Source: an uncultured archaeon | GTDB lineage: Archaea; Thermoplasmatota; Thermoplasmata; Thermoplasmatales; Thermoplasmataceae | Length of the DNA stretch: 64,000 nucleotides | NCBI GenBank assembly: GCA_000965745.1 | Contig: CP009479.1 | Location: forward strand, 2,112,001-2,176,000 | Direction of reading: 5' to 3' | Shown here: positions 205 through 62,842 of the stretch, piece by piece | Numbering within the stretch: the first letter of the stretch is position 1 | How the letters are laid out: every line of letters begins with the position of its first letter | Program-made: the position numbers and the translations under genes | Notes under the pieces: generated by a model | Databases searched by the model: none | The model's input: only the letters and a program-made list of their open reading frames with translations | What the model was told of the DNA's origin: nothing

Positions 205-534
205 TTATTTAATGTTTTCCTGCTTTGAGATCTCATCAATCTCATCGTTAAGCCTCTTCAGGGTGTAATCTCTTAAAACTATGCGGATAAGATCGTCGAG
301 TGAGATTGCAGATCCGCTTTCAACATCCTTTTCAAGATCACTGAGGATCTTCTGTGGGATCATTACGTTCACCTTGCTTGCCTTCCCACCTTTGTAGTTC
401 CTTTCAATGAACTCGTCGATTGATTTTCGGATAATCTCAGAAATGTTCTCGAACTGCATTGACTCTACGAGTTGCTCAAGCTTCTCCATGGTCTCTTCTG
501 AGATTCTTACGGTAACCCTGTAAGGAACTGACAT
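205..534 (-). CDS. Tandem ribbon-helix-helix (CopG/Arc/MetJ) transcriptional regulator, first repeat CdrS-like
   Basis: Two RHH-like repeats: YRVTVRISEETMEKLEQLVE..SEIIRKSI and KVNVMIPQKILSDLEKDVE..DDLIRIVL. Confidence 0.8.
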   Translation of the reverse strand: MSVPYRVTVRISEETMEKLEQLVESMQFENISEIIRKSIDEFIERNYKGGKASKVNVMIPQKILSDLEKDVESGSAISLDDLIRIVLRDYTLKRLNDEIDEISKQENIK

Positions 535-604
535 TTTCCTGAACCCTCAAATAATTCCCGATTCCTATTATTACAGTAATGTTTCAGAGAACGGGACTTA
601 ACCT

Positions 605-634
605 TGTCTGACACAGTTGTAATTTACATATAAA
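605..634 (-). promoter_or_regulatory. Promoter of RHH gene: TATA box (634-629) and TGTCAGACA palindrome near the expected start site
   Basis: Minus strand reads AAAAAGG-TTTATATG...TGTCAGACA; palindrome TGTCTGACA at 605-613. Confidence 0.55.
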
Positions 635-733
635 CCTTTTTGAGTTGCCTGCAAAGTTACGTCATCCGGCCGGAGATATTGAAAGGCATTTATTTTGGAA
701 TTTAATAAATACAGCCATTCAATGCTATAGCCA

Positions 734-1249
734 ATGGTCATTGAAATTGGGAAGAAAGTCTACCTGGCCGAAACGGCTGTCCTGATCGGAGAAGTGAAAT
801 TGTCCGACGGTGTATCTGTTTTTGACCACTCAGTGCTGAGAGGAGATCTGAATCATATCTCGATAGGAACTGATTCAAACATACAGGACAATGTTACGAT
901 TCATGTGGAGAAAGACCATCCTACCGTGATTGGAAGGAATGTTTCTGTCGGGCATAATGCGATAATTCATGGGGCCAAGGTTGAAGAGAGTGTGATTGTG
1001 GGCATGGGTGCCATACTCCTCAATGGCTCCCACATAAGGAGCGGATCAGTAGTGGCAGCAGGGGCGGTTGTCAGAGAAGGTTTCGAGAGTGAGGAAAATT
1101 CAATCGTGGCAGGGATACCGGCAACAACAAAAAAAGTGGATGAGTCCGTCAGAAAGTACGCAGTGAAGAATGGCGAGTCCTATCAGAAATTAAGAGATCG
1201 GTACCTGGCCGGAAAAGTGGAGAAACGATATGGAAAGGGCGAACAATAG
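734..1249 (+). CDS. Gamma-class carbonic anhydrase family (hexapeptide repeat) protein
   Basis: LRGD, NIQDN, IH, GHNAIIHG motifs; left-handed beta-helix repeats. Confidence 0.9.
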   Translation: MVIEIGKKVYLAETAVLIGEVKLSDGVSVFDHSVLRGDLNHISIGTDSNIQDNVTIHVEKDHPTVIGRNVSVGHNAIIHGAKVEESVIVGMGAILLNGSHIRSGSVVAAGAVVREGFESEENSIVAGIPATTKKVDESVRKYAVKNGESYQKLRDRYLAGKVEKRYGKGEQ

Positions 1250-1340
1250 GCAAAAAGAGTGGTGCCCTAGAAACCGGCTTTTCAGCGCCTCTGTGGAACA
1301 TACCTACACAAGAGCATGCTGAAGGACAGGCAGGAGCCAC

Positions 1341-1397
1341 TACATAATTCTATACAGTATTATAAATTAAAAATTATACAAAAAATGGATATAAATA
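1341..1397 (+). promoter_or_regulatory. Archaellum operon promoter with candidate EarA box (TACATA) and TATA boxes
   Basis: TACATA 1341-1346, TTATAAA 1360-1366, TATAAATA 1390-1397; SD GAGGTG just before TTG at 1429. Confidence 0.5.
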
Positions 1398-1428
1398 ACC
1401 AGACGCTTCGACAACCTGAGGTGTCTAA

Positions 1429-2166
1429 TTGAATAGAGCCGTAATGAAAAGAGCTAAAAAGCTCGGGAAATTGTTCAGCCTGAAGGTGGACAGCAGAGGA
1501 GATACAGGAATCGGTACCCTCATTGTTTTCATAGCAATGGTACTGGTTGCTGCAGTCGCTTCAACTGTCCTTATTCACACGGCTGGAACACTACAGCAGA
1601 GAGCATCGAGTACAGGTCAGCAGACAACGCAGCAGGTATCAACCGGTCTGTCGGTGTCTTCGATCTATGGGATCAACAACGAAACCGCCGCGTTTACAGC
1701 AGGTAGCATAAAGTGGGTAGCCATATACATTGGAGAAACATCCGGAAGTCAGCCGGTCAACCTCGGTAACGTCACACTCCAGCTGACATACAAGGGCCAG
1801 ACTGCATCACTTACCTACATTGGCAACAATAGCACAGTTGCCGGGTACCACAGTGCTGCACAGGGAACAAACAATGTTTTCCAGAGCAAATACTTCAGTG
1901 CACTGGATAACAATTCAGCCGGAGCAAGTGATCACTTTGCAGTCCTGACGATAGCAGACCCAACATCATCCCTGTCGGGAACATACCCAGTGGTATCATA
2001 CGGTGACCAGGTAGCGCTGCTAGTCAACGTAACAGCAGTATTTGGCGCAGGTATATCACAGGGACAAAGTGTAACTGGTTCAGTCACGCCACCGAGCGGT
2101 AACCCGGGAGTCATACAGTTCACTGCACCGGAGTCTTTCACACAGGCAATAGTACAGCTGCAATAA
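1429..2166 (+). CDS. arlB: Archaellin
   Basis: Class III signal peptide ..KVDSRG/DTGIGTLIVFIAMVLVAAVA; archaellin C-terminus; several N-glycosylation sequons. Confidence 0.97.
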   Translation: MNRAVMKRAKKLGKLFSLKVDSRGDTGIGTLIVFIAMVLVAAVASTVLIHTAGTLQQRASSTGQQTTQQVSTGLSVSSIYGINNETAAFTAGSIKWVAIYIGETSGSQPVNLGNVTLQLTYKGQTASLTYIGNNSTVAGYHSAAQGTNNVFQSKYFSALDNNSAGASDHFAVLTIADPTSSLSGTYPVVSYGDQVALLVNVTAVFGAGISQGQSVTGSVTPPSGNPGVIQFTAPESFTQAIVQLQ

Positions 2167-2191
2167 GCTGTATTATTCCCCTATTTAATCA

Positions 2192-2677
2192 GTGAGTACA
2201 ATGGGTCTCTTTGACAAATTGATTGGAAGAAGGAAAAAAGAGGCCACAGCAAACGTACAGAATCCTATTCAGCAACAGCCAGCGAACGTCAGTCCACCTC
2301 CACAACCGCAAGTTGACACGAAGATAATAGAAGGGATAAATCAGCGGTTGACTTCGATCGAGAATGAAGTCAACAGGCTGAATATGTCCTTTGAAGCATC
2401 TAGAAGAAGCGTATCTGAGGTAAAAGAAGACGTAGAAGGTCTAAAGGAGAATGTAAAAATGGTAGTTTCACTATATGAAATGGTCTCGAAAGAGTTCAAT
2501 CCGTTCATAGATCAGACTCCAGAAGAGATCAAGGATCTCACAGACTCACTTAGGGAAAACGTTGAAGACCTCAGAAGCCTTGTCAACTCAGCAATCAAGG
2601 ATCTCAAGGAGTTGTATGGAGCACCAGACATGGATTCAATACTAGACGAAATGGATCAGGAGGAATCAAATGATTAA
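2192..2677 (+). CDS. arlC: Archaellum accessory protein ArlC (FlaC)
   Basis: Coiled coil plus LYEMVSKEFNPF motif; directly after archaellin. Confidence 0.85.
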   Translation: MSTMGLFDKLIGRRKKEATANVQNPIQQQPANVSPPPQPQVDTKIIEGINQRLTSIENEVNRLNMSFEASRRSVSEVKEDVEGLKENVKMVVSLYEMVSKEFNPFIDQTPEEIKDLTDSLRENVEDLRSLVNSAIKDLKELYGAPDMDSILDEMDQEESND

Positions 2678-3371
2678 CGATTCCCTTAAGGGATTTCTAC
2701 AGACAAAAGTGGATTCTATCGACAAGTCCATACCTAAATTCGTTGTGGAAGAACTGAGACAGAAAATACTCAACTCACCGACTAAGTTCTCAAAAACAGA
2801 TATTGAGAATCTTTTCAACAACCTTCAGAAAAAATACATGGAGGGCAGAGAAAATTCGCTCCTGGGTAAAGTCGACCAGATATTTCGTGAAATATCCAAT
2901 GTCGAAAGCATGCTGTCAAGCGGAGGGGGGAAACGCCCGAAGCCCTCGGCATTCGACTCAGAAGATGAACTATCCGAACCCACAGCAGAAAAACCTAGGT
3001 CTTACAAGAAAAGATACAAGCTCGAAGCAGTCGGAGATGATGTAGTGTCATTGATGGTTGCCTTGAGATGGCTGGAATTTCTGCTAGACAACTATGGTGC
3101 AGAGAATACTCTTGACATACTCGACTACTACGAAAGTCTCGGATGGATATCGCCCAATGCAAAAGAACAGATGTTCAAGTTTACAAAGATTACGGGCATA
3201 ATGGCTCCTGCACAGGAGTACAAGATTAAGCCGACAATACAGGACCACATAGTTACGATGCTTTTCATTGAAAAGCTGAACGGTGGAGAGATATCCAGGG
3301 ACCTGATAGAGAGGCTTGAAAGAGATTTCAGACTTCTCAAAAAAGGAGTAGACGAACTGTATGGGATTTAG
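2670..3371 (+). CDS. arlD: Archaellum accessory protein ArlD/E (FlaD/E)
   Basis: WLEFL..LDYYESLGWIS..DHIVTMLFIEKL C-terminal FlaD/E domain. Confidence 0.88.
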   Translation: MINDSLKGFLQTKVDSIDKSIPKFVVEELRQKILNSPTKFSKTDIENLFNNLQKKYMEGRENSLLGKVDQIFREISNVESMLSSGGGKRPKPSAFDSEDELSEPTAEKPRSYKKRYKLEAVGDDVVSLMVALRWLEFLLDNYGAENTLDILDYYESLGWISPNAKEQMFKFTKITGIMAPAQEYKIKPTIQDHIVTMLFIEKLNGGEISRDLIERLERDFRLLKKGVDELYGI

Positions 3372-3795
3372 TTACGTTGCAGCTGCGGCAATTTTGCTCA
3401 GTTCAACCCTTATTTTTTTTGGAATGGTATATTCCGGTTTCGTTCAATCGAATCTCGAAATTCACAATTCAGGGGTTCAGTATGACCACCAGAGATACGA
3501 TTATCTCAATTCAAACGTAAACATCACAGGATATAATGTGGTGAATGAAAGCACTGCAAATGCCAGTGCGTATAAGGTATATATAAATATGACAAACACA
3601 GGCAGTGTTACGCTCAATATGAACTCGACAGACATCCTGGTAAACGGGATAATGACCGGGTTCAATTCATCGGCCGAGTACCTGTTCCCGCTGGGAAAGG
3701 GAAACGTCTCATTCAATGTAAATTCAACTTCAACTTATGATGTTGAAATAGTGTTCAGCACAGGATATGAAAAATATGCGAAGGTGACAGCCTAA
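3361..3795 (+). CDS. arlF: Archaellum stator protein ArlF
   Basis: MGFS N-terminal TM helix, NTGS motif, operon position. Confidence 0.85.
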   Translation: MGFSYVAAAAILLSSTLIFFGMVYSGFVQSNLEIHNSGVQYDHQRYDYLNSNVNITGYNVVNESTANASAYKVYINMTNTGSVTLNMNSTDILVNGIMTGFNSSAEYLFPLGKGNVSFNVNSTSTYDVEIVFSTGYEKYAKVTA

Positions 3796-4244
3796 TGGGA
3801 TCTTTAGCAACATCGGAACTGATATTCTTCATAGCAACTCTTGTGATTAGCGCATCCGTAGTGGGAGTTCTCGGGGGCCAGACTCTCCATATTACCCAGA
3901 GCATAAGCCAGTCTTCAAAGACTGTGTCTTCAACGATAGATTCGGGGTTTGAGATCATAAATGACCCGTCCAGCATACCCTACAACAGCGGATATGTGTT
4001 CTACATAAAGAACACCGGAAGCGAGAGCTTCTATTTCACGAATAATACTATTTCCACCGTGATCAACGGAACCCTGCTTTCGGGCAGCAAAGTGGAATAC
4101 CAGGACCTTGGAGGAAACGGCATGCTGATGCCCGGCCAGGTCGGGACAATAACCGCGAACCTGACCCTCAGTCCGGGGTATTACACACTCGATGTTACGC
4201 TGAGCAACGGGCTGGGCCATAGCATGGTGTTCCGGGTGAATTGA
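3795..4244 (+). CDS. arlG: Archaellum stator protein ArlG
   Basis: SELIFFIA N-terminus, IINDP, YIKNTG, PGQV motifs. Confidence 0.88.
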   Translation: MGSLATSELIFFIATLVISASVVGVLGGQTLHITQSISQSSKTVSSTIDSGFEIINDPSSIPYNSGYVFYIKNTGSESFYFTNNTISTVINGTLLSGSKVEYQDLGGNGMLMPGQVGTITANLTLSPGYYTLDVTLSNGLGHSMVFRVN

Positions 4245-4253
4245 GGATCGGCT

Positions 4254-4925
4254 ATGTATCTGGATTACGGAATTGAAGGTGACGAACTTGACAAGAGAAT
4301 GGGCGGCGGGCTATACGTCGGCCAGGTCATGTCAATAATGGGTGAGAGCGGCGAAGGCAAGAGCATGCTTTCCCTGCGTCTAGCCTACGGCCTGATCCAG
4401 AATGGTGCCAGCATATGCTACATTTCATCCCAGTTTCCAGTCAGGGAATTCATATCAGAATCAGAGTCGCTCGGCTATCCGCTGCTTAACGACATACTGT
4501 CTGACCAGATGTCACTGATAACGAGCGTGTTCCTGCTCAGAAGAAGCAGGAAGGCAACGATCGATCAGCTTCTTGAGAATGAGAAGGTGAAGCAGAAACA
4601 GGTACTGATAATCGATTCGCTCCTTCCGATAATGTTCACCGACTTCGACGTGGACTATTTTCTCACGAGGCTGAGAAAATTCTCCGAGGGAAGGATAGTG
4701 ATAATAACGTTAAACCCGACAGATTTCGACCCCAAGATGCTGCTCAAGATACAGCAGCTGTCAACCACTGTCATATCATTGAAGTCAAAGGAGCTGGCAG
4801 GGGAGCGCAAGAGAGTGATTGAGCTGACAAAATTCCCGATGGCCATGAAAGCTTTCCAGCAGTCAATATCGTACAGGATTGAGCCTGGAAGGGGCCTGAT
4901 AGTGGAGATCTCAAGTGTATCATAA
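4254..4925 (+). CDS. arlH: KaiC-like archaellum ATP-binding protein ArlH
   Basis: ELDKRMGGG, Walker A GESGEGKS, IIDSL, C-terminal RIEPGRGLIVEISSV. Confidence 0.92.
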   Translation: MYLDYGIEGDELDKRMGGGLYVGQVMSIMGESGEGKSMLSLRLAYGLIQNGASICYISSQFPVREFISESESLGYPLLNDILSDQMSLITSVFLLRRSRKATIDQLLENEKVKQKQVLIIDSLLPIMFTDFDVDYFLTRLRKFSEGRIVIITLNPTDFDPKMLLKIQQLSTTVISLKSKELAGERKRVIELTKFPMAMKAFQQSISYRIEPGRGLIVEISSVS

Positions 4926-4940
4926 GGAGGAAAGAAACCA

Positions 4941-6563
4941 ATGGTTGAAATAATAAAATCAGACAGCCTTGAAATGGCATTAAGCAGGAATCCGCACCTG
5001 AACGCATACATCGAAAACTACAGGAATGCCACGGGCAGGACTCCTGAATTCGTTTCAGTAGCGGACAACTCGATTAGGGACATGTCATCCATAGATGTCA
5101 TCTATCCTGTGGGCGACCCCATTTTCATTCACATACACCTTAACGACGAGGGGGCGAAACTGTACACGCCAATTGAGCCGAAGCTCACGTTTGATGAAGT
5201 AATAGTAATGGAGGAAATTCTCAACATGCTCCTGGCCTTTGCAACTGATTATCCGGCCCCTGATAACGAGGAGGTGCTTGAGCAGAATCTCGAAGAGCTT
5301 TTCTTCAAGAGGGTGACAGTGGGAGTGGCAAACAAGGTGAGAGGGACCTCCGCAACTGTGCTTCCAGAACTTTACGACAAGCTTCTTTACAACCTGAAGA
5401 AAGAAGTCATCGGGCTTGGGCCACTTGAGCCGCTTATAAGGGATCCGAATATAGAGGATATCAGCGGGATTGGCGCCAAGGATGTGTACATAGTCCATAA
5501 AATACTTGATTCCATGCAGACAGAGGTAACTTTTGGGGACAACGACAGGCTTTCGCTCTATGCTAAGAGGCTGAGCGAAAGGGTAGGGAGGCCTGTCAGT
5601 GACAAAAACCCGATCGTGGACGCCACACTTCCTGACGGTTCCAGGCTTTCGATTGTCTATAGCAGTGACGTGTCTGCCAGGGGCCCCAGCTTCACCATTA
5701 GGAAATTCCAGGACATACCGATTAGTATAGTACAGCTGATAAAGTTCAACACCATGTCCGCAGAAGAGGGGGCTTATCTCTGGCTGGCACTTGAATATGG
5801 CCAGAGTGTGTTTGTCTGCGGCGAGACTGCAAGTGGCAAGACCACGGTGGTAAACGCCATGATTCCGTTCATAAGGCCTGAGTCCAAGATATTCAGTGCC
5901 GAGGACACGCCTGAGGTCAGGGCACCGCATCCTGCCTGGCAACAGCTGGTTACAAGGGAAAGAGGTGCGGAGGACAGCAGGGTCACCCTGTTTGATCTTC
6001 TCAAGACTGCATTAAGGTCAAGGCCCAATTACATTATCGTGGGTGAAATAAGAGGTGCCGAGGGTTCCATGGCTTTCCAGGCCATGCAGACAGGACATCC
6101 GGTAATAGCCACTTTCCACGCAGCATCAGTCAAGAAGATGATCCAGAGGTTTACCGGGGTTCCGATCAACATCCCAGTGACGTTCATGGATAATCTCAAC
6201 ATAGCACTGATACAGCAGGCGGTTTACGTCAACGGCAAGTTCCTGAGGAGAACAACCAGCATTAACGAGATAGAGGGCTACTACGAGGAGCTTGGCGGAG
6301 TCTCCACAAAACAGGTTTTCCAGTGGGACCCGACAACTGACAGGCACATATTCAGGGGAATGAACAACAGCTACATCCTTGAGAAAAGAATCGGGCAGAC
6401 TGCCGGCCTTCCCGATCCGAAGATGATTTATGATGAGCTGTTCAAGAGAGCAAGGATCCTCAAATACATGGTTACCCAGAACATCAACTCATACTATGAT
6501 GTGTTCAAACTCGTAAAGACGTTCTACACCAAGGGGGACATAGGCGTACCAATATTCGGATGA
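4941..6563 (+). CDS. arlI: Archaellum motor ATPase ArlI
   Basis: GETASGKTT Walker A, EDTPE, LRSRPNYIIVGEIRG, TGH..ATFHA. Confidence 0.96.
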   Translation: MVEIIKSDSLEMALSRNPHLNAYIENYRNATGRTPEFVSVADNSIRDMSSIDVIYPVGDPIFIHIHLNDEGAKLYTPIEPKLTFDEVIVMEEILNMLLAFATDYPAPDNEEVLEQNLEELFFKRVTVGVANKVRGTSATVLPELYDKLLYNLKKEVIGLGPLEPLIRDPNIEDISGIGAKDVYIVHKILDSMQTEVTFGDNDRLSLYAKRLSERVGRPVSDKNPIVDATLPDGSRLSIVYSSDVSARGPSFTIRKFQDIPISIVQLIKFNTMSAEEGAYLWLALEYGQSVFVCGETASGKTTVVNAMIPFIRPESKIFSAEDTPEVRAPHPAWQQLVTRERGAEDSRVTLFDLLKTALRSRPNYIIVGEIRGAEGSMAFQAMQTGHPVIATFHAASVKKMIQRFTGVPINIPVTFMDNLNIALIQQAVYVNGKFLRRTTSINEIEGYYEELGGVSTKQVFQWDPTTDRHIFRGMNNSYILEKRIGQTAGLPDPKMIYDELFKRARILKYMVTQNINSYYDVFKLVKTFYTKGDIGVPIFG

Positions 6564-6567
6564 TAAT

Positions 6568-8238: not shown

Positions 8239-8307
8239 TTGCAGTAGTTTCACCTAGCTACAGGGAGCCACAGTAAGAATAAAATAGCTTCAAGAAACTA
8301 CAGTAGG

Positions 8308-25136: not shown

Positions 25137-25179
25137 TTTAAATAATTTGTAGGATTAGTACGTCTGACAAGTGTATGAC
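25137..25179 (+). promoter_or_regulatory. Promoter with two GTMNKAC boxes one helical turn apart
   Basis: TTTAAATA 25137-25144; GTCTGAC 25162-25168; GTATGAC 25173-25179. Confidence 0.5.
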
Positions 25180-25846
25180 ATCATGGAAGAGATCTAGGTT
25201 TAGCACCGCGAAGGAGAAATTGCGCGACTGGCAGATAGAGAAGGAATTTAAGAAGACGAGAAGAAAGCATCCTTTGATTTATTCGCAGAGAGCTGGAGTA
25301 TTCTATTCACTTGTGTTCGGCCTCCTCCTGTGGTGGATTCCTGTTGCCGGTCCTGCCGTTGCCGGATACCTTTCAGGCAGGAAGGCAGGCAGCGTTGCTA
25401 AAGCGTTGACTGCAAACCTTATCGCCACTGCTGTCATAGTACTGCTTACATTTTCACTTGTCCCGTTTACAGCAGGTCCCCTGGGATTTGCCGGGAACTA
25501 CCTCAGTTCCGGACTGCTTACACTTTCACAGTCTAAACTTGTCGCTGCTTCAAACATTCTGACTGATATGTATACAGGCTATGGAATCATCAGAACCTTT
25601 GCAATCATACTCCCGAGTTCACTAGTCACACTTCTGACTTTCGGTTACGTTGGAGGTTTCCACTCCTCTCTCAAGACCCAGGAAGAGAACTACTCAATGA
25701 GCTACATGGCCAAGAACGTGGATGAAAAGGTAGTTTCAAAGCACAGGAATGCACCCAGTGTCCAGGTAGTTAGAAGCGGAATAAAAGAATACAACTCAGG
25801 TGGAGACGACTCGGAAGACCGTTACAGCGGATGGTCCTACCTTTAA
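25175..25846 (+). CDS. Hypothetical membrane protein
   Basis: Basic N-terminus, Gly-rich TM segments (WWIPVAGPAVAGYLSG), polar C-tail. Confidence 0.75.
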   Translation: MTSWKRSRFSTAKEKLRDWQIEKEFKKTRRKHPLIYSQRAGVFYSLVFGLLLWWIPVAGPAVAGYLSGRKAGSVAKALTANLIATAVIVLLTFSLVPFTAGPLGFAGNYLSSGLLTLSQSKLVAASNILTDMYTGYGIIRTFAIILPSSLVTLLTFGYVGGFHSSLKTQEENYSMSYMAKNVDEKVVSKHRNAPSVQVVRSGIKEYNSGGDDSEDRYSGWSYL

Positions 25847-46004: not shown

Positions 46005-47522
46005 TTATCCACCGGTATACTGCTCCACAACGTAGTATTTGTCACTGAACACTTCCTTGTACATGCCAGAGGGGAAATACCCTGATGAAGCTTGTGAAGC
46101 AAGAAATTCCTGCGTCACAACGATGTATTTTATGCCGTATTCATGGATGTAATTTGCTGAAGTTTGATTTGCAGGGTTCATCACGATATATGTCGCTGCG
46201 TTCCTGAGGTCTATCTGGCTGCCCCCTACCAGAAAATTACCATATACGATCACGGGAACGCCATCCACGGATGATATGTAGTTCCCTATGTTTGGAGCTA
46301 TCACGATCCCATTGCTGAGGTTCTTTTCACCCCATGCAAGCAGTTGGGCATCATACTGGTAATACCCGGACTTGTAGTGTGAAACGCTTCCTGCTGCAAT
46401 TCCTGCCTGGAATGGAACTGCGACGAGAACCACGCCCAGAAGAATGGCGATTGCCAATCGCGAAGCGGAATTCCTTCCCTTCCCGGTTGCTGCACGTTTC
46501 AAAACCGGCCCTGAAGTTGCACTGAAAAGCCTGAGGACGACAATAGTTCCCAGTATTATCGTATAATACATTATCCTGCCCCCAAGCGTTGTGGATTTGA
46601 ATATGAAAGGTATGAAGATGAGTGAGGCCACGAGAGCAATTATGAATGGGTCCCATTTCACCTTTGACAGCCTGATGTCGCTCTTGTAGAGTGTGTAAAA
46701 TGCAATCGCGATGACTGACAATGCGAAAGGGATGAACACCATGAGATACGACCCGGCTGTACTGAGCGGTATGTACGAGCCGTAGCCGCTAGATTCGGTA
46801 ACGAAAAATGCATCGTAAACAAACCTGATTCTTGGCAACCACCAGATCAGGCCAACAACCAGGGCCGAAAAGAATGGCATCAGTTCACGGAGTATCAGGT
46901 TGAGGTCCTTCCTGGTTGCGTCATAGATCAGGAGCACAAGGAACGCAAGCATGGAGAAGAACCAGGTAAGATCGTGGCTCAAGGCAAGCAGGACAGCAGC
47001 TATAGATGACCAAAGGATCCAGGTCCAGCCTGAAATGCTTCTCTTTGAGAGTGTGTAAAGAAGGGCTATGAAGAGAAATTCACCGAAGATGAACGGGTCC
47101 CCGCCCCAAGACAGACCATAGAGATCCGGCATGAAGAATACCGCAACTGCGCCGATAATCAAGTTCTTCAAGGCGCTTTTGTTGTTTCTAGCTGCATAAT
47201 ATATTATTGAAGCGGTCAGGGAACTTGCGGTTGCCGCCACTGCCAGAAGTTCAGCCATTACAAGGTGCGGGGCGAATGCCGGATGAAACAGGGCGTTGAG
47301 TGAGTTTACTATCAGAAACAAGAGAGGGGGGTATATGTAGGCAGTTCCAGGAAAGTAGAGCACATTTGCTGCAGGTATCCACCCTGCGATGTGTATCTCC
47401 CTCACAAATGTGGCAAACTGCCCAAGGTCTCCGCCCTGTATGAACGTAGGATAAAAAATGAGCAATCTTACTGACAGTGATGTTACGAATATTGCAAGAG
47501 TCTCAATTAGGGCCCTTCTCAT
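46005..47522 (-). CDS. Polytopic membrane protein, GT-C-like glycosyltransferase candidate
   Basis: GGD in first loop, YIYPP, WGGDP, LSHDL; C-terminal soluble YGIKYIVV domain. Confidence 0.6.
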   Translation of the reverse strand: MRRALIETLAIFVTSLSVRLLIFYPTFIQGGDLGQFATFVREIHIAGWIPAANVLYFPGTAYIYPPLLFLIVNSLNALFHPAFAPHLVMAELLAVAATASSLTASIIYYAARNNKSALKNLIIGAVAVFFMPDLYGLSWGGDPFIFGEFLFIALLYTLSKRSISGWTWILWSSIAAVLLALSHDLTWFFSMLAFLVLLIYDATRKDLNLILRELMPFFSALVVGLIWWLPRIRFVYDAFFVTESSGYGSYIPLSTAGSYLMVFIPFALSVIAIAFYTLYKSDIRLSKVKWDPFIIALVASLIFIPFIFKSTTLGGRIMYYTIILGTIVVLRLFSATSGPVLKRAATGKGRNSASRLAIAILLGVVLVAVPFQAGIAAGSVSHYKSGYYQYDAQLLAWGEKNLSNGIVIAPNIGNYISSVDGVPVIVYGNFLVGGSQIDLRNAATYIVMNPANQTSANYIHEYGIKYIVVTQEFLASQASSGYFPSGMYKEVFSDKYYVVEQYTGG

Positions 47523-48633
47523 TATTTACCACACTGAGATAAAGATCGGAAAGTTTATCGGATATAGTATCCCAGTCATACTGCACAGAGAAGTCCCTTG
47601 CATTCCGGCTAAGAGTCTTCCATCTGTCTTCATCCTTGTACAGCTGCTTGATCTTGGAAATCATATCTTCAAAGTCCTGGGATACAATCCCGTTATAGCC
47701 GTCCCTGATAACTTCATTGATAGCAAGATTATAAGGACCGCTCAGGGCCATCACTGGAACTGATGCAGCCATTGCCTCCAGAGATGCTATAGAGAATCCT
47801 TCACGGTAGCTAGGCATTACAAAGAGCCATGAGTTTTTAATTTCCCTTACGAGTTCTTCGTGCCCAATGTGGCCGGTGATGCTTATGTTACCGTTGCCGT
47901 TTACCAGATTCCTCAGGTTTCTGATCTGGCTCCCGTCGCCTACAATTTTGAGATTGAGGTCCTTGTGCTTGTTTACATGCTTGATCAGGAGATCCAGCCT
48001 CTTGTGGGATTCAATCCTCCCGACATAAATGATCTGGCCCCATTCCTTGTTATTGTTGCAGAGGAATTCAGAAGTATTCACGCCGTTGTTGATTATTGAG
48101 ACGTTCTTTGAAGGCCCGTAGGTGTTTTTCAACAGGTTGGAAACAGTATCTGAAACAGCTATGTGGTTATGGATGAACCTGTACACAAGGCCCTCCCAGC
48201 TTGCCACTTTTCTCCAGAAGACGTTTCTTGAATAATAGTAATCCCTGAGTACCTCGTGCCATGTGAAAAATGTGTTCTTTTTCTTTTCTATGGCTTGAAT
48301 CCCGCTGAGAGCATGTACCAGGGGAAATTCGTCGAAATTATAAATGTCGTAATCACGGTATTCTTTCAGCCTTTTCCTGACTCCTGATGAGTATTTCAGT
48401 GCTCCCATGAGCCTCCTTGAGTCCACTTTGAAATACTGAGAAGGGTCGAGATTTGTAACAAACTCGACGTCCAGGCCTTTAATTTCCGGAGGGTCTGTGA
48501 AACCGTTTGTGAGGATCTTGATCTCGAAACCCTTGTTTGCAAGACGCCGGAAGGTTTCAAAAGACCTTGTCTCTGCACCTCCCTCATGCGGATGAAAGGA
48601 CTCGTTGGCCGAGATAATCCTTGGAAGGTCCAT
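47503..48633 (-). CDS. Family 4 glycosyltransferase
   Basis: GGAE, YVGRIESHKR, PSYREGFSIASLEAMA. Confidence 0.93.
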   Translation of the reverse strand: MDLPRIISANESFHPHEGGAETRSFETFRRLANKGFEIKILTNGFTDPPEIKGLDVEFVTNLDPSQYFKVDSRRLMGALKYSSGVRKRLKEYRDYDIYNFDEFPLVHALSGIQAIEKKKNTFFTWHEVLRDYYYSRNVFWRKVASWEGLVYRFIHNHIAVSDTVSNLLKNTYGPSKNVSIINNGVNTSEFLCNNNKEWGQIIYVGRIESHKRLDLLIKHVNKHKDLNLKIVGDGSQIRNLRNLVNGNGNISITGHIGHEELVREIKNSWLFVMPSYREGFSIASLEAMAASVPVMALSGPYNLAINEVIRDGYNGIVSQDFEDMISKIKQLYKDEDRWKTLSRNARDFSVQYDWDTISDKLSDLYLSVVNNEKGPN

Positions 48634-48983
48634 CTATATATGTCCTCCGATGTTCATCGTGATGACAAGTGATGCACCGTTTTGATTATAATTTTTGCCC
48701 GCGATCTGATAATCTGACATGTATTTCCATGGTGTGATACGTTCAGTCAATTCGTTTTCCTGTCTTGCGATGTCAGACATGCATGCTTCAGCGTTAATAC
48801 CAATCTCATATGAATAACTTTGTAGTACAGCCGACGCGATCACTTTAAGATTGCATCTTCGCTGACGCGGTTTGGACAAACGTTTGAGGGCTGAAAGCCA
48901 TGTCTGATCAACCCTTGTTGATATCCTGTGAGATCATGCCTGTTCAGCGCTTGCCAAAGATTATATAACTATTTTACACTGTC

Positions 48984-49502
48984 TTGCCGTTGGAAATTAA
49001 CAGGCCCAGTTGGGACCAGTACTTCATGAGGATGGCATTCCTGGCTGCATCGAGAACTAACTGCACCAGAAGAAAAGTAGGGGCCGTCATAGTAAAGGAC
49101 AAGAATGTGCTTGCAACTGGATACAACGGTCCACCGTCAAATTCCGCACATTGTGATTCTGCCGGCTGCCTCAGGAACATCATGGATGTGCCATCGGGAG
49201 AAAGGCATGAGCTATGCAGGGGACTGCACGCCGAACAGAATGCCATAATCCAGGCAGCCGTGCATGGTGTAAGCATAAAAGACTCTGTTATATATGTGAC
49301 AACACATCCATGCGTTGTTTGTGCCAAGATGCTTATTAATGCCCATATAAATGAAGTCATATATGCGGATGGCTACCCGGATGAGCTTTCCAAACTCATG
49401 CTTCTCGATAGCGATCTTAACTTGAGAAGATTTGAACTTCCTGAAGAGGAAGTGAGGATGATGATCGGTAACTTTTCCATGGCAGAGTCGGGTGAAGATT
49501 AA
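48984..49502 (+). CDS. dCMP deaminase (ComEB family)
   Basis: [25 protein letters not shown]. Confidence 0.93.
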
Positions 49503-53762: not shown

Positions 53763-53801
53763 ATTGACTGGCAAACCTTAAATATTATTTATTAATTATA
53801 G

Positions 53802-53824: not shown

Positions 53825-53838
53825 AGAGGTGTAGATAT

Positions 53839-54378: not shown

Positions 54379-54393
54379 CGTGAAGAGCGGAAA

Positions 54394-55752: not shown

Positions 55753-55754
55753 GC

Positions 55755-56969
55755 TCAGCGCGATATTTCCTCTTCTATCCTTACAAGCTCATTGAGCTTG
55801 GAAAGCCTCTCGCCACCGATGATTCCTGACTTTATGTATTTTGAGGAAAATGCCACAGCAAGGTGTGCAATGAAATCGTCTGTTGTCTCGCCGCTTCTGT
55901 GTGACACGACATTCTCCATGCCTGCGCGGGTAGCGAGGTCTACTGCCTCATACGTGGAGGTGAGTGTTCCGATCTGGTTGACTTTTATAAGTATGGCATT
56001 GGTTGATTTTTCCTCTATGCCGCGCTCAATTCTCTTGGTGTTTGTAGTGTATAGGTCATCGCCGACTATGAGGCACCTGTTCCCTACCGCCTTGGTTATC
56101 TCTGCGAACCCCTCGAAGGCATCTTCGTAAAGTGGGTCCTCCACAAGGGCAAACCCGTAATCGTTGACAAGTGATTTTACATAGTCTATCTGCTCGTCCT
56201 CCGATTTCTTTGAATTCCTGTATACGTACTTTCCCTTCTCATAAAAAGAGGTCGCTGCCAGGTCCATTCCAAGATCGATTTTGACCCCGGTTTCTCCAGA
56301 TACCTGTTCTGTCGCGTCCTTCAGTATATCTATGGCTTCTTCATCGGATATGCTCGCAGTCCAGGCACGCTCATCCCCAACGCCTATGCTGACGTTTGGA
56401 AACTTGGCGGACAGAACTTCACCTATCTTCCTGTGCACCAGTGAGTTCACGTGTATCGATTTCAAAAAGGTGTCGCCATGTGCGGCTACGTGGAATTCCT
56501 GAATAGTTGTTCCATTTGTCGAGTGCTTGCCTCCGCCGATCACGTTTCCGAGGGGCCATGGAATTCTATTGACAAAACTTCCTCCTACAACTGAATACAA
56601 CGGAATTCCCAGCTTGCATGCAGAGGCCTTAGCGTTAGCTATTGAGAGGGCAGTTGCCATATTTCCTCCCAGGAGGCCGAAGTTGTATGTGCCGTCAAGC
56701 TCAGTGAGAACACGGTCAAATCCCCTCTGATCCAGAGAATTTCTTCCGATTATTGATGATTTTACGCTTGAATTAAAGAACTCAATTGAGGAATCGATTC
56801 CCTTGTTTGAGAACGCAATCACCTCGGTCGCTCCAGTGCTGGCTCCTGATGGTGCAGAGCAGCGACCGAAGGCTCCATCCAGGTAGATATCTGCTTCTAT
56901 CGTATACCTGCCCCTTGAATCCAGAACTTTCCTGACGTTTACGTCCCTGATTTCGAACCCTTTAACCAT
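55755..56969 (-). CDS. eno: Enolase
   Basis: [31 protein letters not shown]. Confidence 0.97.
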
Positions 56970-57011
56970 AACGATACCTAAACCAAACTATTGATAAAAA
57001 ACCTTCCCGGC

Positions 57012-57545
57012 TCATTCGTGTTTCTCAAGTGTACCGGAGTAGCTGACACAGAATGCGTTATACCTTTCCTTGTAAGCTGTCCAGAGTTGGACGTACCTGT
57101 CGGTCACTTCAGCCACAACCTTTGCCGGAATGCCAACGGCAATCTTCCTGTCCGGTATTACGTCCTTATTCTTGACGACCGCCCCTTCACCAACAGCGGA
57201 CCACTCGCCCAGCTCCGCAAAATCTGAAACTACAGACCCCATTCCAATAACTGCCCAGTCCTTGATTTTCGCCGTATGGACAACTGCGTTATGCCCCATT
57301 GTGACATGACTGCCTATTCTGGTCGTCTCCCCGGGCCTGGAATGAACCACGCAGTTGTCTTCGATGGCGGTAAAGTCTCCAACCTCTATCTTTCCATAAT
57401 CCCCGCGCAGCACCGCACCGGGGCCAACCCATGTCCTCTTCCCTACTGTAACGTCGCCGATGACTGTCGCGTTGGGAAAAATATAAGCTTCCCCGTCAAT
57501 CTTCGGTTTTCTCCCTTCATATCCATAGGAAGTCATTGGTTCCAA
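57012..57545 (-). CDS. Gamma-class carbonic anhydrase family protein (second paralog)
   Basis: LRGDYG, IEDNCVVH, GHNAVVH. Confidence 0.9.
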   Translation of the reverse strand: MEPMTSYGYEGRKPKIDGEAYIFPNATVIGDVTVGKRTWVGPGAVLRGDYGKIEVGDFTAIEDNCVVHSRPGETTRIGSHVTMGHNAVVHTAKIKDWAVIGMGSVVSDFAELGEWSAVGEGAVVKNKDVIPDRKIAVGIPAKVVAEVTDRYVQLWTAYKERYNAFCVSYSGTLEKHE

Positions 57546-57567
57546 TCCCGTTTACGTATTAAAAACA

Positions 57568-58479
57568 TCATTCGCCCGCGATTACCTTCCTTTTTTCCCT
57601 GAACAGCTTCTCTATGTCGCCGTAGCCAAACCTGAACTCACTCATTGGAGTTTCTATGGCCTTCGATGAAACGATGATGCCCATGATTATGGAATCGCTG
57701 ATGCTCATTCCCTTCCACAGCCCCATGTACAGGCCTGACCTGAAAGAGTCACCTGCGCCTATTGTGTCGTACACTTTCTCTGCCGGAAGGATTGAAAAGT
57801 GATTGGAATCCCCATCCCGGAAAGCTGAAACCCCGCTCTGGCCACCGGTTATTATTATCGTTTCAATCTCCGACGTCAGTTCCTCATGGGACTTTCCTGT
57901 CAGCTCCTTAAGTTTTTGGTATTCCGCTTCGTTCCCAACAAACATGTCTGCACGGTCTATGAATTTTTGAGCAGTTTCCCTGCTGTACCTGTAGTGTATT
58001 TCCTGTCCCGGGTCAAATGTAACCTTGCTGCCCCCGAGCAGATCGAAAACTTTTGCGTATTCCTCCGGAGGGCCTGTTGAAAAATGTGCCCACTTGTAAT
58101 CAGAATCAGCTGAAAAATTTACTGCGGGAGACCATGAATCCATGGGGCCCTGGAATACGTATGCCACCTGGTCATTGCCGTCGGAAGATATATAGCAGAC
58201 CGGACCGTAGCTGTCTTTCAGCTGGTCGACGTGTTTCAGGTCGATGCCAATGGACGAGAGGTATTCAAGGTATTCAGCGTGGGTCTTCGGAGATACTGCT
58301 GAGTAAAGGTCAAAATCAAGCCCAAGTTTTCTTGAGACTATTGCAAAATTCCCGGCCGTGCCACCAAAATTCTCGGATACGTCTGTCACGTTGACCGACC
58401 CGACGCGCGGGAGTACTGGTACCCTTATCGATACATCAATGTTTATGTGACCAAAAAAAGCAAGGAAAGATGATGTCAT
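57568..58479 (-). CDS. PfkB/ribokinase family kinase (nucleoside kinase-like)
   Basis: GGTAGN, DPGQ, NEAE, DTIGAGDSF. Confidence 0.92.
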   Translation of the reverse strand: MTSSFLAFFGHINIDVSIRVPVLPRVGSVNVTDVSENFGGTAGNFAIVSRKLGLDFDLYSAVSPKTHAEYLEYLSSIGIDLKHVDQLKDSYGPVCYISSDGNDQVAYVFQGPMDSWSPAVNFSADSDYKWAHFSTGPPEEYAKVFDLLGGSKVTFDPGQEIHYRYSRETAQKFIDRADMFVGNEAEYQKLKELTGKSHEELTSEIETIIITGGQSGVSAFRDGDSNHFSILPAEKVYDTIGAGDSFRSGLYMGLWKGMSISDSIIMGIIVSSKAIETPMSEFRFGYGDIEKLFREKRKVIAGE

Positions 58480-58495
58480 CTCTCCCTTGATCCAA

Positions 58496-59152
58496 CTATC
58501 GTATTTGGTTATTGAGGTCTCTCAGGACGTTTCTGATTGTTACTTCGGAAACTCCTGCGAATTTTGAGATCTCGCCCTGAGTTCTCAGTTCACCCCTCTT
58601 CTGGCAGGAGATATACAAGCTTGCAGCTGCAATGGCGGAGGGCTTGAATGTTTTTGATCTCTTCTTCAGAGATTCTGAAAATTCAGAGCACGTGTCCTTT
58701 GCCATCTGGACGGTTCCCTCACTGATCATCAGCTTCTTCCCTATGGATGCTATCACAGCGTTGTGGTCAGGCATGCTCCTCTTGTATTTTGGCTCCAGGT
58801 CAAGGATCTTCTTGTATGTCCTCATTACAAGAACCGGGTCCAGCTGGTCGGGGAACCTTTTGCTCTTTGACTTCCCATAGAACGAGTTTGGAGCAACATA
58901 GGTGTTCAGTTCCCTGGCGGCCGCAATTATGCACGCTGCTACGGTATACCTGAAATCCTTGCCCCTCATAAGATCCTTCTTGGTAACATTCTGGTAAACC
59001 TCAAGGCTCTTGATCTGAAGCTCCTTGGGAAGATTCAGAAATCTGTTGAGCTCGTCATAGTACTGCAGGAAAATCCTGTCAGATACATTCCTTCTCATTA
59101 TTGAAATTTTGAACTGGTTAAACCTTTTGGCAAATGATATTGAACTGTCCAT
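58496..59152 (-). CDS. TFB/TFIIB paralog with cyclin-fold core only
   Basis: LMRGK..VAACIIAAAR and KPSAIAAASLYI..RTQGEISKFAGVSEVTIRN; no N-terminal zinc ribbon. Confidence 0.85.
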   Translation of the reverse strand: MDSSISFAKRFNQFKISIMRRNVSDRIFLQYYDELNRFLNLPKELQIKSLEVYQNVTKKDLMRGKDFRYTVAACIIAAARELNTYVAPNSFYGKSKSKRFPDQLDPVLVMRTYKKILDLEPKYKRSMPDHNAVIASIGKKLMISEGTVQMAKDTCSEFSESLKKRSKTFKPSAIAAASLYISCQKRGELRTQGEISKFAGVSEVTIRNVLRDLNNQIR

Positions 59153-59157
59153 TCACT

Positions 59158-59550
59158 TCACCCCTTCACGATGTCCTTGTAGAAATTCTCTACATTCACA
59201 ATTTCCGTTTTTTCACTCCGGCCCATTATGTCTTTTATCTCAGACGCCACCAGATTTTCTTTTCCATAGAGCATTGAATAAAATACCTGCCCCCCTTCGT
59301 GATGCATTACAATCTTCTCAGGAAATGAAAATTTTTCAAAGAATTTCGTGCATATTGCCCTGAACATTACATAGGATTCTTCCCCAACGTAAGACAGAGA
59401 TTCCACTATAATCCCTCTTCCTCTTCTGGTTATTTCGTTCACTTGGAGATTATCCTTTGTGAAATAGTAACCTACCTCGCGGATGCTTCCTTTATGTGCT
59501 TTTTCGCGCTTCGTCTGAAGGTACCGTACATTTCTCATGGATAGTTTCAT
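59158..59550 (-). CDS. Hypothetical protein upstream of the TFB paralog
   Basis: 130 aa ORF, 5 nt gap to the TFB-like gene with SD GGGGTGA, TATA box upstream. Confidence 0.65.
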   Translation of the reverse strand: MKLSMRNVRYLQTKREKAHKGSIREVGYYFTKDNLQVNEITRRGRGIIVESLSYVGEESYVMFRAICTKFFEKFSFPEKIVMHHEGGQVFYSMLYGKENLVASEIKDIMGRSEKTEIVNVENFYKDIVKG

Positions 59551-59563
59551 TTCGACCCACTTC

Positions 59564-59594
59564 TAATACGTATTACTAAAGAAGGTATATAAAA
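59564..59594 (-). promoter_or_regulatory. Promoter of the hypothetical/TFB-like operon with palindrome near the start site
   Basis: TTTTATATA 59594-59586; perfect palindrome TAATACGTATTA 59564-59575 overlapping GTATTAC 59570-59576. Confidence 0.55.
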
Positions 59595-59787
59595 GTTACG
59601 CCATTTTTTTCATCAAAATTATTAAATAGGGATGATGCTTTGTTTCAAATTGTACCTGTCTTTTAAATACTCGATATCAAAAATTCGACAAAAATGAACA
59701 AAACATTCACATTTCAAAAATATGAGAACCGGTAAAACCAGTTAAAATTGTCCAATTAAGTATTAGAATAATTGGACTCAGGTCAGA

Positions 59788-60219
59788 TTACAAAGTAAGT
59801 TCAAGCTCCACTTTGGCCATGTTGCCGAACACAATAGTGTCCTTGTCTGGACAGTCCACAGGGAGAGAGAGCGACTTGTTCTCCTTGAGAGATTTGAACG
59901 CGTCCAGAAACCTTCCAAGGTCGTTGCGGCTATCATGTATAATGAGGAAGTTCCTGGTGCCCGGCGTAACGCCGACTGCCCCATAAGCCTTAGGTATCTG
60001 AGAGTGCCCGGAAAGATATAGCATCAGTAGAGTTGCGTCATCCCTGACCTTTTTCCCCCTGTTCCGGTCCACATGTTCCATGGCAGCCCTGATTTGAACT
60101 TCAGAAAAGATCTTGTTTCTGTCCAACACGGCAAAAAAATTTTCAGCAGTCCGTAAAAAATCACGGACCTTGTTTGATTCCAGAGATATATTTGAACTGA
60201 GATATGTGAAATCAGGCAA
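59788..60219 (-). CDS. cgi121: KEOPS complex subunit Cgi121-like
   Basis: [20 protein letters not shown] resembles the Cgi121 LLYxSGxRQIxxA motif; size fits. Confidence 0.7.
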
Positions 60220-62164
60220 CGTTTGTTCCTGCCCTTCCTTTCGGTGGGCCGAATTTTTTAGCGTTGAGGAATTCAGCTATTCTTCCGAAGAACCTCTGCC
60301 TCTCAGGTGAGGGGACGAGCGAGTTTTCGAGAACATCCTGGATGTTTGCTGCCGGAATTATTTCTATCTTCCCCATATGCTCCTGGTCAAGGACTATGTC
60401 CCCGAGGTTGGCTGCAGGCACTATTACTCTCTTCAGGCCGGAGTCTATGGCAGCTTCAATCTTTGCACTGACCCCTCCAACAGGAAGGACGTTTCCCCTT
60501 ACACTGAGGGAGCCTGTCATGGCAACCTCCTGGTCTACTGGTATGTCCTCCATTGCAGATATCACTGCAGTTGCGATGGAAATGCTTGCCGAATCTCCTT
60601 CCACACCTTCGTATGTGCCGACAAACTGTATGTGAATGTCGACGTCTGAGATGTCCTTGCCACTCATCTTCTTAAAGACAGCAGAGACGTTCTGGACCGC
60701 TTCCTTTGCAATATCGCCGAGCTTTCCCGTTGCGATTACAGTGCCGTTGCCCTTATGCTGCGCAGGGGTAACCTCAGCAACTATTGGCATCACGATTCCA
60801 GTATATTCTGCCATTCCAGAGCCGCCACCCATAACAGCCAGGCCGTTGATTGTCCCGATAGCCTCTCCTTCACTGAGGAAGGTCTTGTAGACTTTCTTGA
60901 TCTCTATAGCCTTGTCAGCTACCTGCTGCTCGAGAGGCTTACTCAGAGCCCTTGCCCTTATCACGTGTTTTGCATTCACTATGGATGCGTTCTCGGATAT
61001 TGCAATGTCACCAGCAACACGTATCAGACCACCAAGTTCCCTGAGCCTGAGGGTAAGCTTTCCTCTTCTTCCGGAGCGTTTCTGCGCTTCCTTGATTATC
61101 TCGATGACTGCAGATGTGTCAAAGTGTGGTATTTTTTTGTCCTTTGAGATTTCCTGGGCTATGAACTGAACCAGTTTTGTCCTGTTGTCATCGTTGTCAT
61201 TCATTGTGTTGTTGACATATACTTCGTAACCGTAGCCCCTTATCCTTGACCTCAGTGCCGGGTGTATACCCTGAACTGCGTCCAGATTCCCGGCAGCAAC
61301 AAGAACAAAGTCACATGGGACCGGTTCGGTCTGCACCATTGCACCAGCACTTCTCTCACTCTGACCCGATATCGGGAATTTCTTCTCCTGCATAGCAGTA
61401 AGGAGAGCCTGCTGGCTTTCTGGCCTCAACAGGTTCATTTCATCCACGAAAAGGACTCCCCTGTGGGCCTTGTGGATATTCCCCGCTTCTACCCTGTCGT
61501 GAGACGGAGTTTCCAGTCCCCCGGACTGAAAGGGATCGTGCCTGACGTCTCCGAGCAGTGCTCCGGAGTGTGCGCCTGTTGAATCCACGAAGGGCGGCTT
61601 GTCGCTGCCCGTGTGTGAAACGAGTAATTTCGGGATTAACGCCCGTTCGCTTCTCATTGCAGGATTAAAAGCCAGTGCCATGTAGATGAAAGCGGCTGCC
61701 ATAATTGCAAAGAATATGACTGTCCACTGCCCCAGGACCACGGCTGCGATAATTCCCAGGAATATTACCGAGAAAATTATGAACATTACCCCCCTGGACC
61801 TGTCTTTCTTTTCCCTTTCAGCCTTTATCTGGTACTGCCTGACTATCTCCTTGCCTTTTCCGGCAGGAAGCGTCTTGACCTTTGGTCTGTTGTTGTCCTC
61901 GGGATTAGGGAGGATCATAATGTCTTCCAGCTCTTCCTTTGGCAGAAAGTCCACCATTGATTGAGCCAGCATGGATTTCCCAGTTCCGGGATCTCCTATA
62001 AGTAGGACATGCCTCTTTTGCAGGGCAGCTTTTTTGACTACCTGCCCAGCTTCATCCTGTCCTATTACTTGATCGAAAAGAACCTTGGGTATTTGTACAT
62101 CCTTTGTGCTTTCTATGTTTAGCTTGGATACCCATTGTTCTACTTCTTCCATTTCTTCTTGCAC
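60212..62164 (-). CDS. lonB: Membrane-bound ATP-dependent protease LonB
   Basis: [10 protein letters not shown] insert, [30 protein letters not shown]. Confidence 0.97.
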
Positions 62165-62280
62165 GATACTTCATCTAAATTTAATAAATAAGCCTTTCCT
62201 ATTATTAGGGAGACAGAAAACGAAACGATTTTTCCCCGGTTTATAAAATCAAAATGGAAAAGTGGCTGTTGACTGTAAAA

Positions 62281-62628
62281 TTACCCTATTTCAACAGCGA
62301 AGACTTTCCTCTGGTTAAACATGTTCTTCAGGGCTTTTACGTCCTCAATATATTCCATGTTTACCTTGAAGTACTTGAACCCGTTCTTTGTCTGCTCGAC
62401 GTTGACAAGGCCAAGGCCGCATAGCGATTCCTCGCCGGTATACCTGACGCCTAGACCCTCAAGACAGCCTTTTACGTTTGAAGGATCGGACTTTATAGCT
62501 CTCGAAATCTCTGAAAGGTATGAACGGTACGGATAGATCGAAAGGAGGTAGAAGAGAACCTTTCTTCTGAGTTCGCTTCTGTTTAATGATCTTATGACGT
62601 TGCCGTCTGCCACTAGTTCCATATCCAT
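62281..62628 (-). CDS. earA: EarA-family archaellum transcriptional activator
   Basis: VIRSLNRSELRRKVLFYL..YLSEISRAIKSDPSNVKGCL.G.G.RY..SL..LGLV wHTH pattern of the EarA family. Confidence 0.8.
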   Translation of the reverse strand: MDMELVADGNVIRSLNRSELRRKVLFYLLSIYPYRSYLSEISRAIKSDPSNVKGCLEGLGVRYTGEESLCGLGLVNVEQTKNGFKYFKVNMEYIEDVKALKNMFNQRKVFAVEIG

Positions 62629-62842
62629 AAATGGCTTAGGGTGTATTTAAAATTTTTTTTCATCACAATTATATGTCGTACGAAATACAGATAGTCATAC
62701 CGTAACACCTACATAAACGGCATTCGCCGATTGGATTTTTGTCTGACATTACGCCTGCCCAGCAACATTGTGGCCATCAGCATTAATGTAAGATCAGAGT
62801 TTCTGAGCATATAATATTTTATTCGATTAGATATCCCCTTTC

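Follow-up and report, generated by a model that had tools for sequence, protein, structure and literature searches.

To our knowledge, the regulators so far tied to the timing of archaeal division and chromosome segregation are limited to haloarchaeal CdrS and to aCcr1-3 of Sulfolobales. Ribbon-helix-helix (RHH) proteins such as Arc, MetJ, CopG, NikR and the two-repeat TraY use a beta-ribbon to read short symmetric sites within one major groove, and the classical RHH autorepressors act on their own promoters, where adjacent subsites permit cooperative binding. The class Thermoplasmata includes wall-less acidophiles, marine group II and gut methanogens. CdrS binds upstream of ftsZ1 (PMC8406309), the cdrS-ftsZ2 arrangement is widely conserved in Euryarchaeota (PMC7439475), and aCcr1, an RHH repressor of Sulfolobales, uses a 9-bp palindrome that follows the TATA box and precedes the start codon (PMC9976878). 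Here, we analyse a 64,000-nucleotide (nt) stretch of DNA (hereafter the window; contig CP009479.1, positions 2112001-2176000) from the complete genome of an uncultured archaeon of the Thermoplasmataceae (2.23 Mb, 46% G+C), which encodes a tandem RHH protein, RHH-1, and carries a recurring 9-bp palindrome, TGTCWGACA. Comparison across related genomes makes it probable that this palindrome is the operator of RHH-1 and that RHH-1 is the Thermoplasmata version of a CdrS-type cell-division regulator. No paper was found in our literature search on a CdrS-type regulator, this operator or a link to smc in Thermoplasmata.

The RHH-1 locus, near the start of the window, comprises:
205-534, minus strand: RHH-1, a tandem RHH protein of 109 amino acids (aa), CdrS-like (Pfam RHH_1; best match CdrS model NF058555), the proposed operator-binding regulator
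605-613, no strand: palindrome TGTCTGACA, the predicted operator in the RHH-1 promoter, 71 nt ahead of the start codon and at an orthologous position in relatives
627-634, minus strand: TATA box TTTATATG of the RHH-1 gene, starting 21 nt before the palindrome

A preliminary description of this DNA, made from the window alone, had proposed that the palindrome and a relaxed 7-bp core, GTMNKAC, mark the promoters of an RHH regulon. Its coordinates for both motifs were right, and its distance of about 22 nt from the RHH-1 TATA box agrees with the 21 nt measured from the TATA start. Exact palindromes lie at 605-613, 48771-48779 and 62740-62748, all three intergenic. With 3 observed against 0.62 expected, and 3 reached in 2 of 100 shuffles, the excess in the window is mild, and taken alone it would be weak evidence against a functionless recurrence produced by composition or chance. 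The whole genome makes that explanation scarcely credible. On a crude longest-open-reading-frame (ORF) gene map, which leaves 11.35% of the DNA intergenic, TGTCWGACA occurs 19 times with 10 copies intergenic (binomial P 1.2e-5), against 1.5-1.7 intergenic copies expected under Markov models of orders 1-3, and it holds a unique first rank among 176 palindromes of the form N4-W-N4 with at least two G/C per arm, the runner-up having P 0.012. The coding count is inflated, because three of the coding copies (contig positions 718705, 1126639 and 2075212) belong to one insertion sequence (IS), present in identical copies with a 310-aa transposase ORF. Further, an 81-aa ORF drawn across 48771 is probably spurious, lying in a gap from which a GT4 glycosyltransferase gene on the minus strand and a dCMP deaminase gene on the plus strand diverge. 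Once the three IS copies are collapsed and 48771 is taken as intergenic, 11 of 17 copies are intergenic (P 2.6e-7). Chance is also at odds with a position that is conserved across families whose RHH-1 orthologues share as little as 31-37% identity, as set out below.

The relaxed core fared differently. It had been taken to mark further RHH sites at 25173, 48822, 59570 (at a TFB-like operon), 62675 and 62694, and these positions do carry it, that at 62675 within a genus-conserved block upstream of earA. A wider regulon of this kind is nevertheless highly improbable: GTMNKAC occurs in the window at chance level (39 against 31.9), its 1070 genome-wide copies are 13.4% intergenic against a background of 11.35%, which is no enrichment, and one-mismatch variants of the 9-mer lie at background in all classes (11-14% intergenic). 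The five sites are thus unsupported, and only the core copy at 25162 looks genuine. The suggested link to a truncated TFB is unsupported as well, the gene being real (it encodes a TFIIB repeat) but the GTATTAC at 59570 being unlike the palindrome, with no palindrome at the promoter or in its context. Because both the relaxed core and the one-mismatch classes remain at background, the signal sits in the exact palindrome, and the proposed genome scan finds intergenic enrichment for TGTCWGACA and none for GTMNKAC. For scanning, then, the exact palindrome is informative and the 7-mer uninformative, though single one-mismatch cases look real by position and orthology, e.g., at 25161 and at -105 of ftsZ-B.

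Conservation of the palindrome at orthologous promoters, which the preliminary description had offered as a check, was found at the RHH-1, smc and ftsZ promoters. The relatives compared include Oxyplasma meridianum, Thermogymnomonas acidicola and E-plasma, and the source genome belongs to family f1. Of 37 related genomes, 24 have the exact 9-mer at the RHH-1 promoter; by genus, 17 of 28 have it and 22 of 28 have the core GTCNGAC, where about 0.0015 sites per promoter would be expected by chance; counted over named RHH-1 loci, 18 of 48 have the exact 9-mer and most others the core. A clear TATA box always precedes the palindrome, the two starts being a median of 24 nt apart in 23 orthologous promoters, and the DNA around the palindrome cannot be aligned, since the protein identities themselves fall to 31-37%. 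The pattern extends beyond the order: at all 16 loci from four families of other orders the TATA box is followed by GTCNGAC or TGTCNGACA, frequently in two copies with a spacing of 22 bp. The central base of the operator, W within the order of the source genome, is often G in those other orders. The centre of an archaeal TATA box lies at about -26/-27, so the spacing would place the RHH-1 site from about -9 to +1, across the predicted initiation region. The span predicted for the ftsZ sites is likewise about -9 to +1, and that for the smc site, its flanking half-site included, about -3 to +13. The recurrence of the palindrome at the RHH-1 promoter in these genomes makes autoregulation, as proposed in the preliminary description, the simplest reading of the locus.

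At the heart of the putative regulon stand ftsZ and smc, a conserved core that the preliminary description had overlooked. In the source genome a palindrome lies 13 nt ahead of the probable smc start codon (MIESLELDNFKSF), with a GACA half-site two bases before it, giving GACA-N2-TGTC-T-GACA. Among 36 smc promoters from 24 genera, 11 carry an exact site and 14 a site with one mismatch (25 of 36 at no more than one mismatch), against 0.03% exact and 1.1% at no more than one mismatch in shuffles. In family f6 (G029 and G033; loci L044, L045, L049, L055 and L060-L063) the palindrome is the centre of a longer symmetric element, TCATAT-N3-TGTCWGACA-N3-ATATGA, and the smc promoters there hold further TGTCATG/CTGACATG repeats. 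Extra (T)GTCAT half-sites stand beside many palindromes, and together these longer elements, repeats and half-sites point to cooperative binding of several RHH modules.

For ftsZ, 20 of 30 promoters of the main (ftsZ-B type) gene have a match at no more than one mismatch, and in nine genera of f1 the site stops just 1 nt short of the ATG, immediately past the TATA box. In the genus of the source genome just a distal copy is left at ftsZ-B, reading TGTCCGACA at -105 in the source genome and exact in G002. The divergent ftsZ paralogue of G029 and G033 has a palindrome 13 nt before its ORF, and the gap between the genes for the RFC large subunit and TIM carries one in the same two genomes. A site upstream of ftsZ or sepF had been suggested as a further check: the comparison of main ftsZ promoters provides it for ftsZ, and the sepF upstream region holds none. 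The presence of an smc site in nearly all genomes could also be taken to mean that the palindromes help to organise or segregate the chromosome, with SMC or a partition protein loaded or anchored at them as at parS, and do not act in transcription. We consider this very unlikely, given that three genes unrelated to one another have the site at a fixed distance from TATA box and start codon, that the sites are scattered round the chromosome without clustering, and that one occurs at the promoter of an RHH transcription-factor gene.

The protein itself has the expected architecture. Residues 6-45 of RHH-1 match Pfam RHH_1 (PF01402; E 7e-9, 35.8 bits against a gathering cut-off of 20.5), and a profile of the second repeat aligns to that of the first in hhalign with 95.8% probability (E 6.8e-9), so the repeats are homologous and RHH-1 is a true tandem RHH protein, as first described. 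The likeness of repeat 1 to CdrS, noted at the same time, stands in that the CdrS model NF058555 is its top NCBIfam match (E 5.1e-10) and not in terms of family membership, its score being 39.2 bits against a cut-off of 100. The aCcr1 model (NF053762) matches weakly (E 1.6e-3, 18.3 bits against a cut-off of 60), and databases label the homologues of RHH-1 just "RHH domain-containing" or "CopG family". R6, T8 and R10 of the first strand, together with S32 and R36, are invariant in 20 orthologues. Orthologues occur in 39 of 41 relatives, and a profile search of Thermoplasmata detected the family in 140 of 151 genomes, spread over 64 of 67 genera; this tally includes one unpublished genome (G130), on which no other claim depends.

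Two other identities were considered and rejected. For NikR, a nickel-responsive RHH regulator whose name some databases give to homologues, the models and the structure PDB 2bj1, the sole hit among solved structures, match only the RHH part of RHH-1, and weakly (E 1e-3 to 3e-3), and its C-terminal half is a second RHH repeat, not a metal-binding tetramerisation domain. Type II antitoxin models (RelB/ParD) reach just E 0.04-0.06, and the neighbours are pheT and a hexapeptide-repeat gene, with no toxin gene; presence in 64 of 67 genera is likewise unlike an antitoxin, which would show a patchy, mobile distribution. Unlike classical RHH autorepressors, RHH-1 has no nickel or ligand domain and no toxin or plasmid context, and is a chromosomal, class-wide housekeeping gene. 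In the source genome pheT (phenylalanyl-tRNA synthetase beta chain) follows RHH-1 after 26 nt on the same strand (window 2-534), a gap short enough that the two may be co-transcribed in this genus. The divergent hexapeptide-repeat neighbour is likewise present in G019.

Outside family f1, gene order points to a tie between RHH-1 and cell division. In families f4-f7 (10 genomes) and at 15 of 16 loci of other orders an ftsZ paralogue starts 70-190 nt downstream of the RHH-1 gene, the neighbour in G029 having Tubulin and FtsZ_C domains; in f1, the source genome included, RHH-1 is not beside ftsZ and pheT follows it. This suggests an ancestral cdrS-ftsZ linkage in the class that Thermoplasmataceae have lost, with the regulatory link kept through promoter sites.

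RHH-1 shares with CdrS (Halobacterium salinarum VNG0194H, Haloferax volcanii HVO_0582; NF058555) its nature as an RHH transcription factor, the usual position of its non-f1 orthologues directly upstream of an ftsZ paralogue, like cdrS-ftsZ2, the inclusion of the other ftsZ among its predicted targets, and distal sites (at earA and others) that lie about 100 nt upstream, inside the reported CdrS range of -110 to -41. It differs in having 109 aa and two repeats where CdrS has about 60 aa and a single RHH, in standing beside pheT and not ftsZ in the source genome, in having most of its conserved sites between TATA box and start codon, i.e., in a repressor position, and not upstream of the promoter, and in counting smc as a core target, with an operator sequence that is here a prediction. 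Its likeness to aCcr1 (NF053762; Sulfolobales and their viruses) is one of mechanism and not of membership: site size, promoter position and logic are shared with the RHH-1, smc, ftsZ and 25175 promoters, whereas aCcr1 is a single RHH of about 58 aa, its box is A(T/G)G(A)TA(G)A(T/G)TACN, and its target is cdvA of the ESCRT machinery in place of ftsZ and smc. RHH-1 is best filed among the CdrS/aCcr1-like RHH regulators of the cell cycle, as a form whose domain is duplicated, with a predicted operator and a putative ftsZ/smc-centred regulon.

The site statistics, positions and conservation, and the architecture, distribution and synteny of the protein, are observed; from them we infer that RHH-1 is the binder, what the sign of regulation would be and where transcription would start. 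RHH-1 is favoured because of the class-wide site at its own promoter, a matching distribution, the invariant strand, the ftsZ synteny, the likeness to CdrS and the compactness of a 9-bp palindrome, which fits a beta-ribbon lying in a single major groove, as with the 9-bp box of aCcr1 at the same place in its promoters (PMC9976878). An alternative in which the operator is genuine and is bound by another factor, with RHH-1 merely one of the targets, is unlikely, though it deserves more weight than the other alternatives considered here. One candidate is RHH-2 (contig positions 1550356-1550751), a 131-aa tandem RHH protein with no Pfam match, a similar first strand (K-I-T-L-R) and orthologues in the same number of relatives, 39 of 41. 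Several lineages, too, keep the smc site where the RHH-1 promoter has none. However, no TGTCWGACA was found at RHH-2 promoters, which carry instead, some 10 nt upstream of the TATA box in an activator-type position, a conserved box of the sequence TGT(C/A)CATACA; this different box suggests that each RHH paralogue has its own site. The class-wide conservation of the RHH-1 promoter site along with RHH-1 also counts against a separate binder. A truncated FtsZ-like ORF of 252 aa follows the RHH-2 gene at a distance of 15 nt (1549582-1550751; L241). A GntR-type or winged helix-turn-helix (wHTH) binder, for which an HTH_45 protein whose promoter carries a palindrome was considered, was rejected, its distribution being too narrow (14 of 41 relatives, none of them in f3-f7).

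Several points weigh against RHH-1 as the binder and against its reading as a CdrS-type regulator. The case for binding is comparative throughout, the CdrS model scores RHH-1 far under its curated cut-off (34.5 bits in the genome search), and the paralogue RHH-2, also order-wide, is a candidate for the same role. A tandem RHH protein should form an asymmetric ribbon (R-T-R in strand 1, K-N-M in strand 2), which sits uneasily with a perfect palindrome, a problem that would not arise if the first repeats of two chains paired with each other; an AlphaFold2 monomer has the four expected helices and forms no strands (predicted local distance difference test, pLDDT, 73; predicted template modelling score, pTM, 0.38), and so leaves the pairing of the repeats undecided. 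The source genome has no RHH-1/ftsZ adjacency, its ftsZ-B site is the central-C variant at -105, and no site was found in its ftsZ-A upstream region. Further, the RHH-1 promoter is without a site in 7-13 of 37 genomes, all FtsZ-less genera included, while smc there keeps a variant. No FtsZ/tubulin match was found in the genomes of the Thermoplasmataceae genera g3, g19 and g20 (G005, G021, G022, G024 and G164; 97-99% complete), which keep RHH-1 with TTAATTTAAT and no palindrome after the TATA box, and whose smc promoters have TGTCATAC-type variants, with an exact site in G024. The correlation between FtsZ and the promoter site, drawn among genomes related to one another, is partial, because genera g12, g14 and g15 contain FtsZ and have no site at the RHH-1 promoter either. 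A co-occurrence comparison within genus g22 carries no weight for or against RHH-1, because its smc promoters do not differ between genomes with and without a detected RHH-1 and the genomes are 90-92% complete.

If RHH-1 is the binder, at least one RHH beta-ribbon module, with its invariant Arg-Thr-Arg strand, would read the 9-bp palindrome in one major groove. Bound over the initiation region, RHH-1 would allow TBP and TFB to bind and would block recruitment of RNA polymerase, and the outcome would be negative autoregulation together with repression of division and segregation genes. Additional promoters would have gained sites in this genus (earA, a type IV pilin gene, a glycosyltransferase gene, the 25175 membrane-protein gene, a vWA operon and the wHTH gene), and where sites stand about 100 nt upstream of a TATA box, activation or modulation may occur.

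The sites and genes concerned in the window are as follows:
25137-25144, plus strand: TATA box TTTAAATA of the 25175 membrane-protein gene, starting 24 nt before the 25161 site
25161-25169, no strand: 8/9 operator variant CGTCTGACA, 6 nt ahead of the membrane-protein ATG, recognised by position and homologous sites
25175-25846, plus strand: 223-aa membrane protein of no Pfam or NCBIfam family, a probable target
47503-48633, minus strand: GT4 glycosyltransferase gene (Pfam Glycos_transf_1, Glyco_transf_4), a probable genus-level target
48771-48779, no strand: predicted operator palindrome TGTCAGACA, an exact match 138 nt upstream of the glycosyltransferase gene
48984-49502, plus strand: dCMP deaminase gene, on the other side of the 48771 gap
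62281-62628, minus strand: earA, archaellum regulator (Pfam EarA, E 1.6e-29), a lineage-specific target
62740-62748, no strand: predicted operator palindrome TGTCTGACA, an exact match that lies upstream of both earA (by 112 nt) and aroC (by 95 nt)

Unlike the TFB link, the other two gene links of the preliminary description held. The earA site, at -105 to -112, is exact in G001-G003 and G013 and has central-C variants in G010 and G018, and is thereby kept in four genera despite differing flanks and neighbours; the 25175 site lies in the canonical position, and homologues of the gene in two distant genomes, G013 (L084) and G029 (L061), have exact palindromes at the gene start. The glycosyltransferase gene is the constant neighbour of the 48771 site, since its orthologue in G001 has an exact palindrome 133 nt upstream and the deaminase gene is not the neighbour there. 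Elsewhere in the genome, intergenic palindromes lie beside a type IV pilin gene, twice at a vWA-like operon, beside the wHTH and dienelactone hydrolase genes, at tsr3/pyrG, and in a pair of long gaps close to ileS and a geranylgeranyl reductase gene. The last two, exact copies at contig positions 1414728 and 1029593, are in gaps that measure about 800 and 350 nt, have no gene start called close by and may contain unannotated small genes or RNAs, and that at 1414728 is kept in G001. Overall, 6 of the 11 intergenic sites are exact at orthologous places in G001 though the flanks have diverged, and this conservation together with the unique intergenic enrichment argues that the site is functional. 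The earA, pilin, glycosyltransferase and 25175 membrane-protein genes are lineage-specific additions to the conserved core.

Other elements of the window concern motility and general transcription. Beside the palindrome upstream of earA, ATGTAGGT at 62707-62715 (earA strand) includes the reverse complement of the EarA box TACATA and is kept in 8 of 13 genomes, and a TACATA at 1341-1346 lies about 45 nt upstream of the archaellin-operon TATA box (1390-1397), which suggests that EarA here regulates both its own gene and the archaellum. The truncated TFB region (58496-59550) encodes a 218-aa protein with the TFIIB cyclin-like repeat only, lacking the N-terminal zinc ribbon and B-reader, and a 130-aa ORF with no Pfam match precedes this gene.

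Together, these comparisons would make Thermoplasmata a third lineage for the control of division and segregation, with a concrete protein, a 9-bp site and a list of promoters (its own gene, ftsZ and smc), and they suggest that smc belongs to the same circuit as RHH-1 and ftsZ. FtsZ-less genera that keep RHH-1 offer a natural experiment on its other targets. A broader proposal, which we hold to be a serious possibility and would stop short of calling probable, is that RHH-1 is a class-wide master regulator of the cell cycle, a duplicated CdrS homologue whose single operator couples its own level to ftsZ, to smc and, in some lineages, to genes for replication (RFC and nucleotide metabolism), motility and the cell surface (earA, pilin, glycosyltransferase), and which persists with rewired targets in the FtsZ-less genera. 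If true, Thermoplasmata would gain a first defined cis-regulatory code for division and segregation, and smc would for the first time be placed under a CdrS/aCcr1-type regulator.

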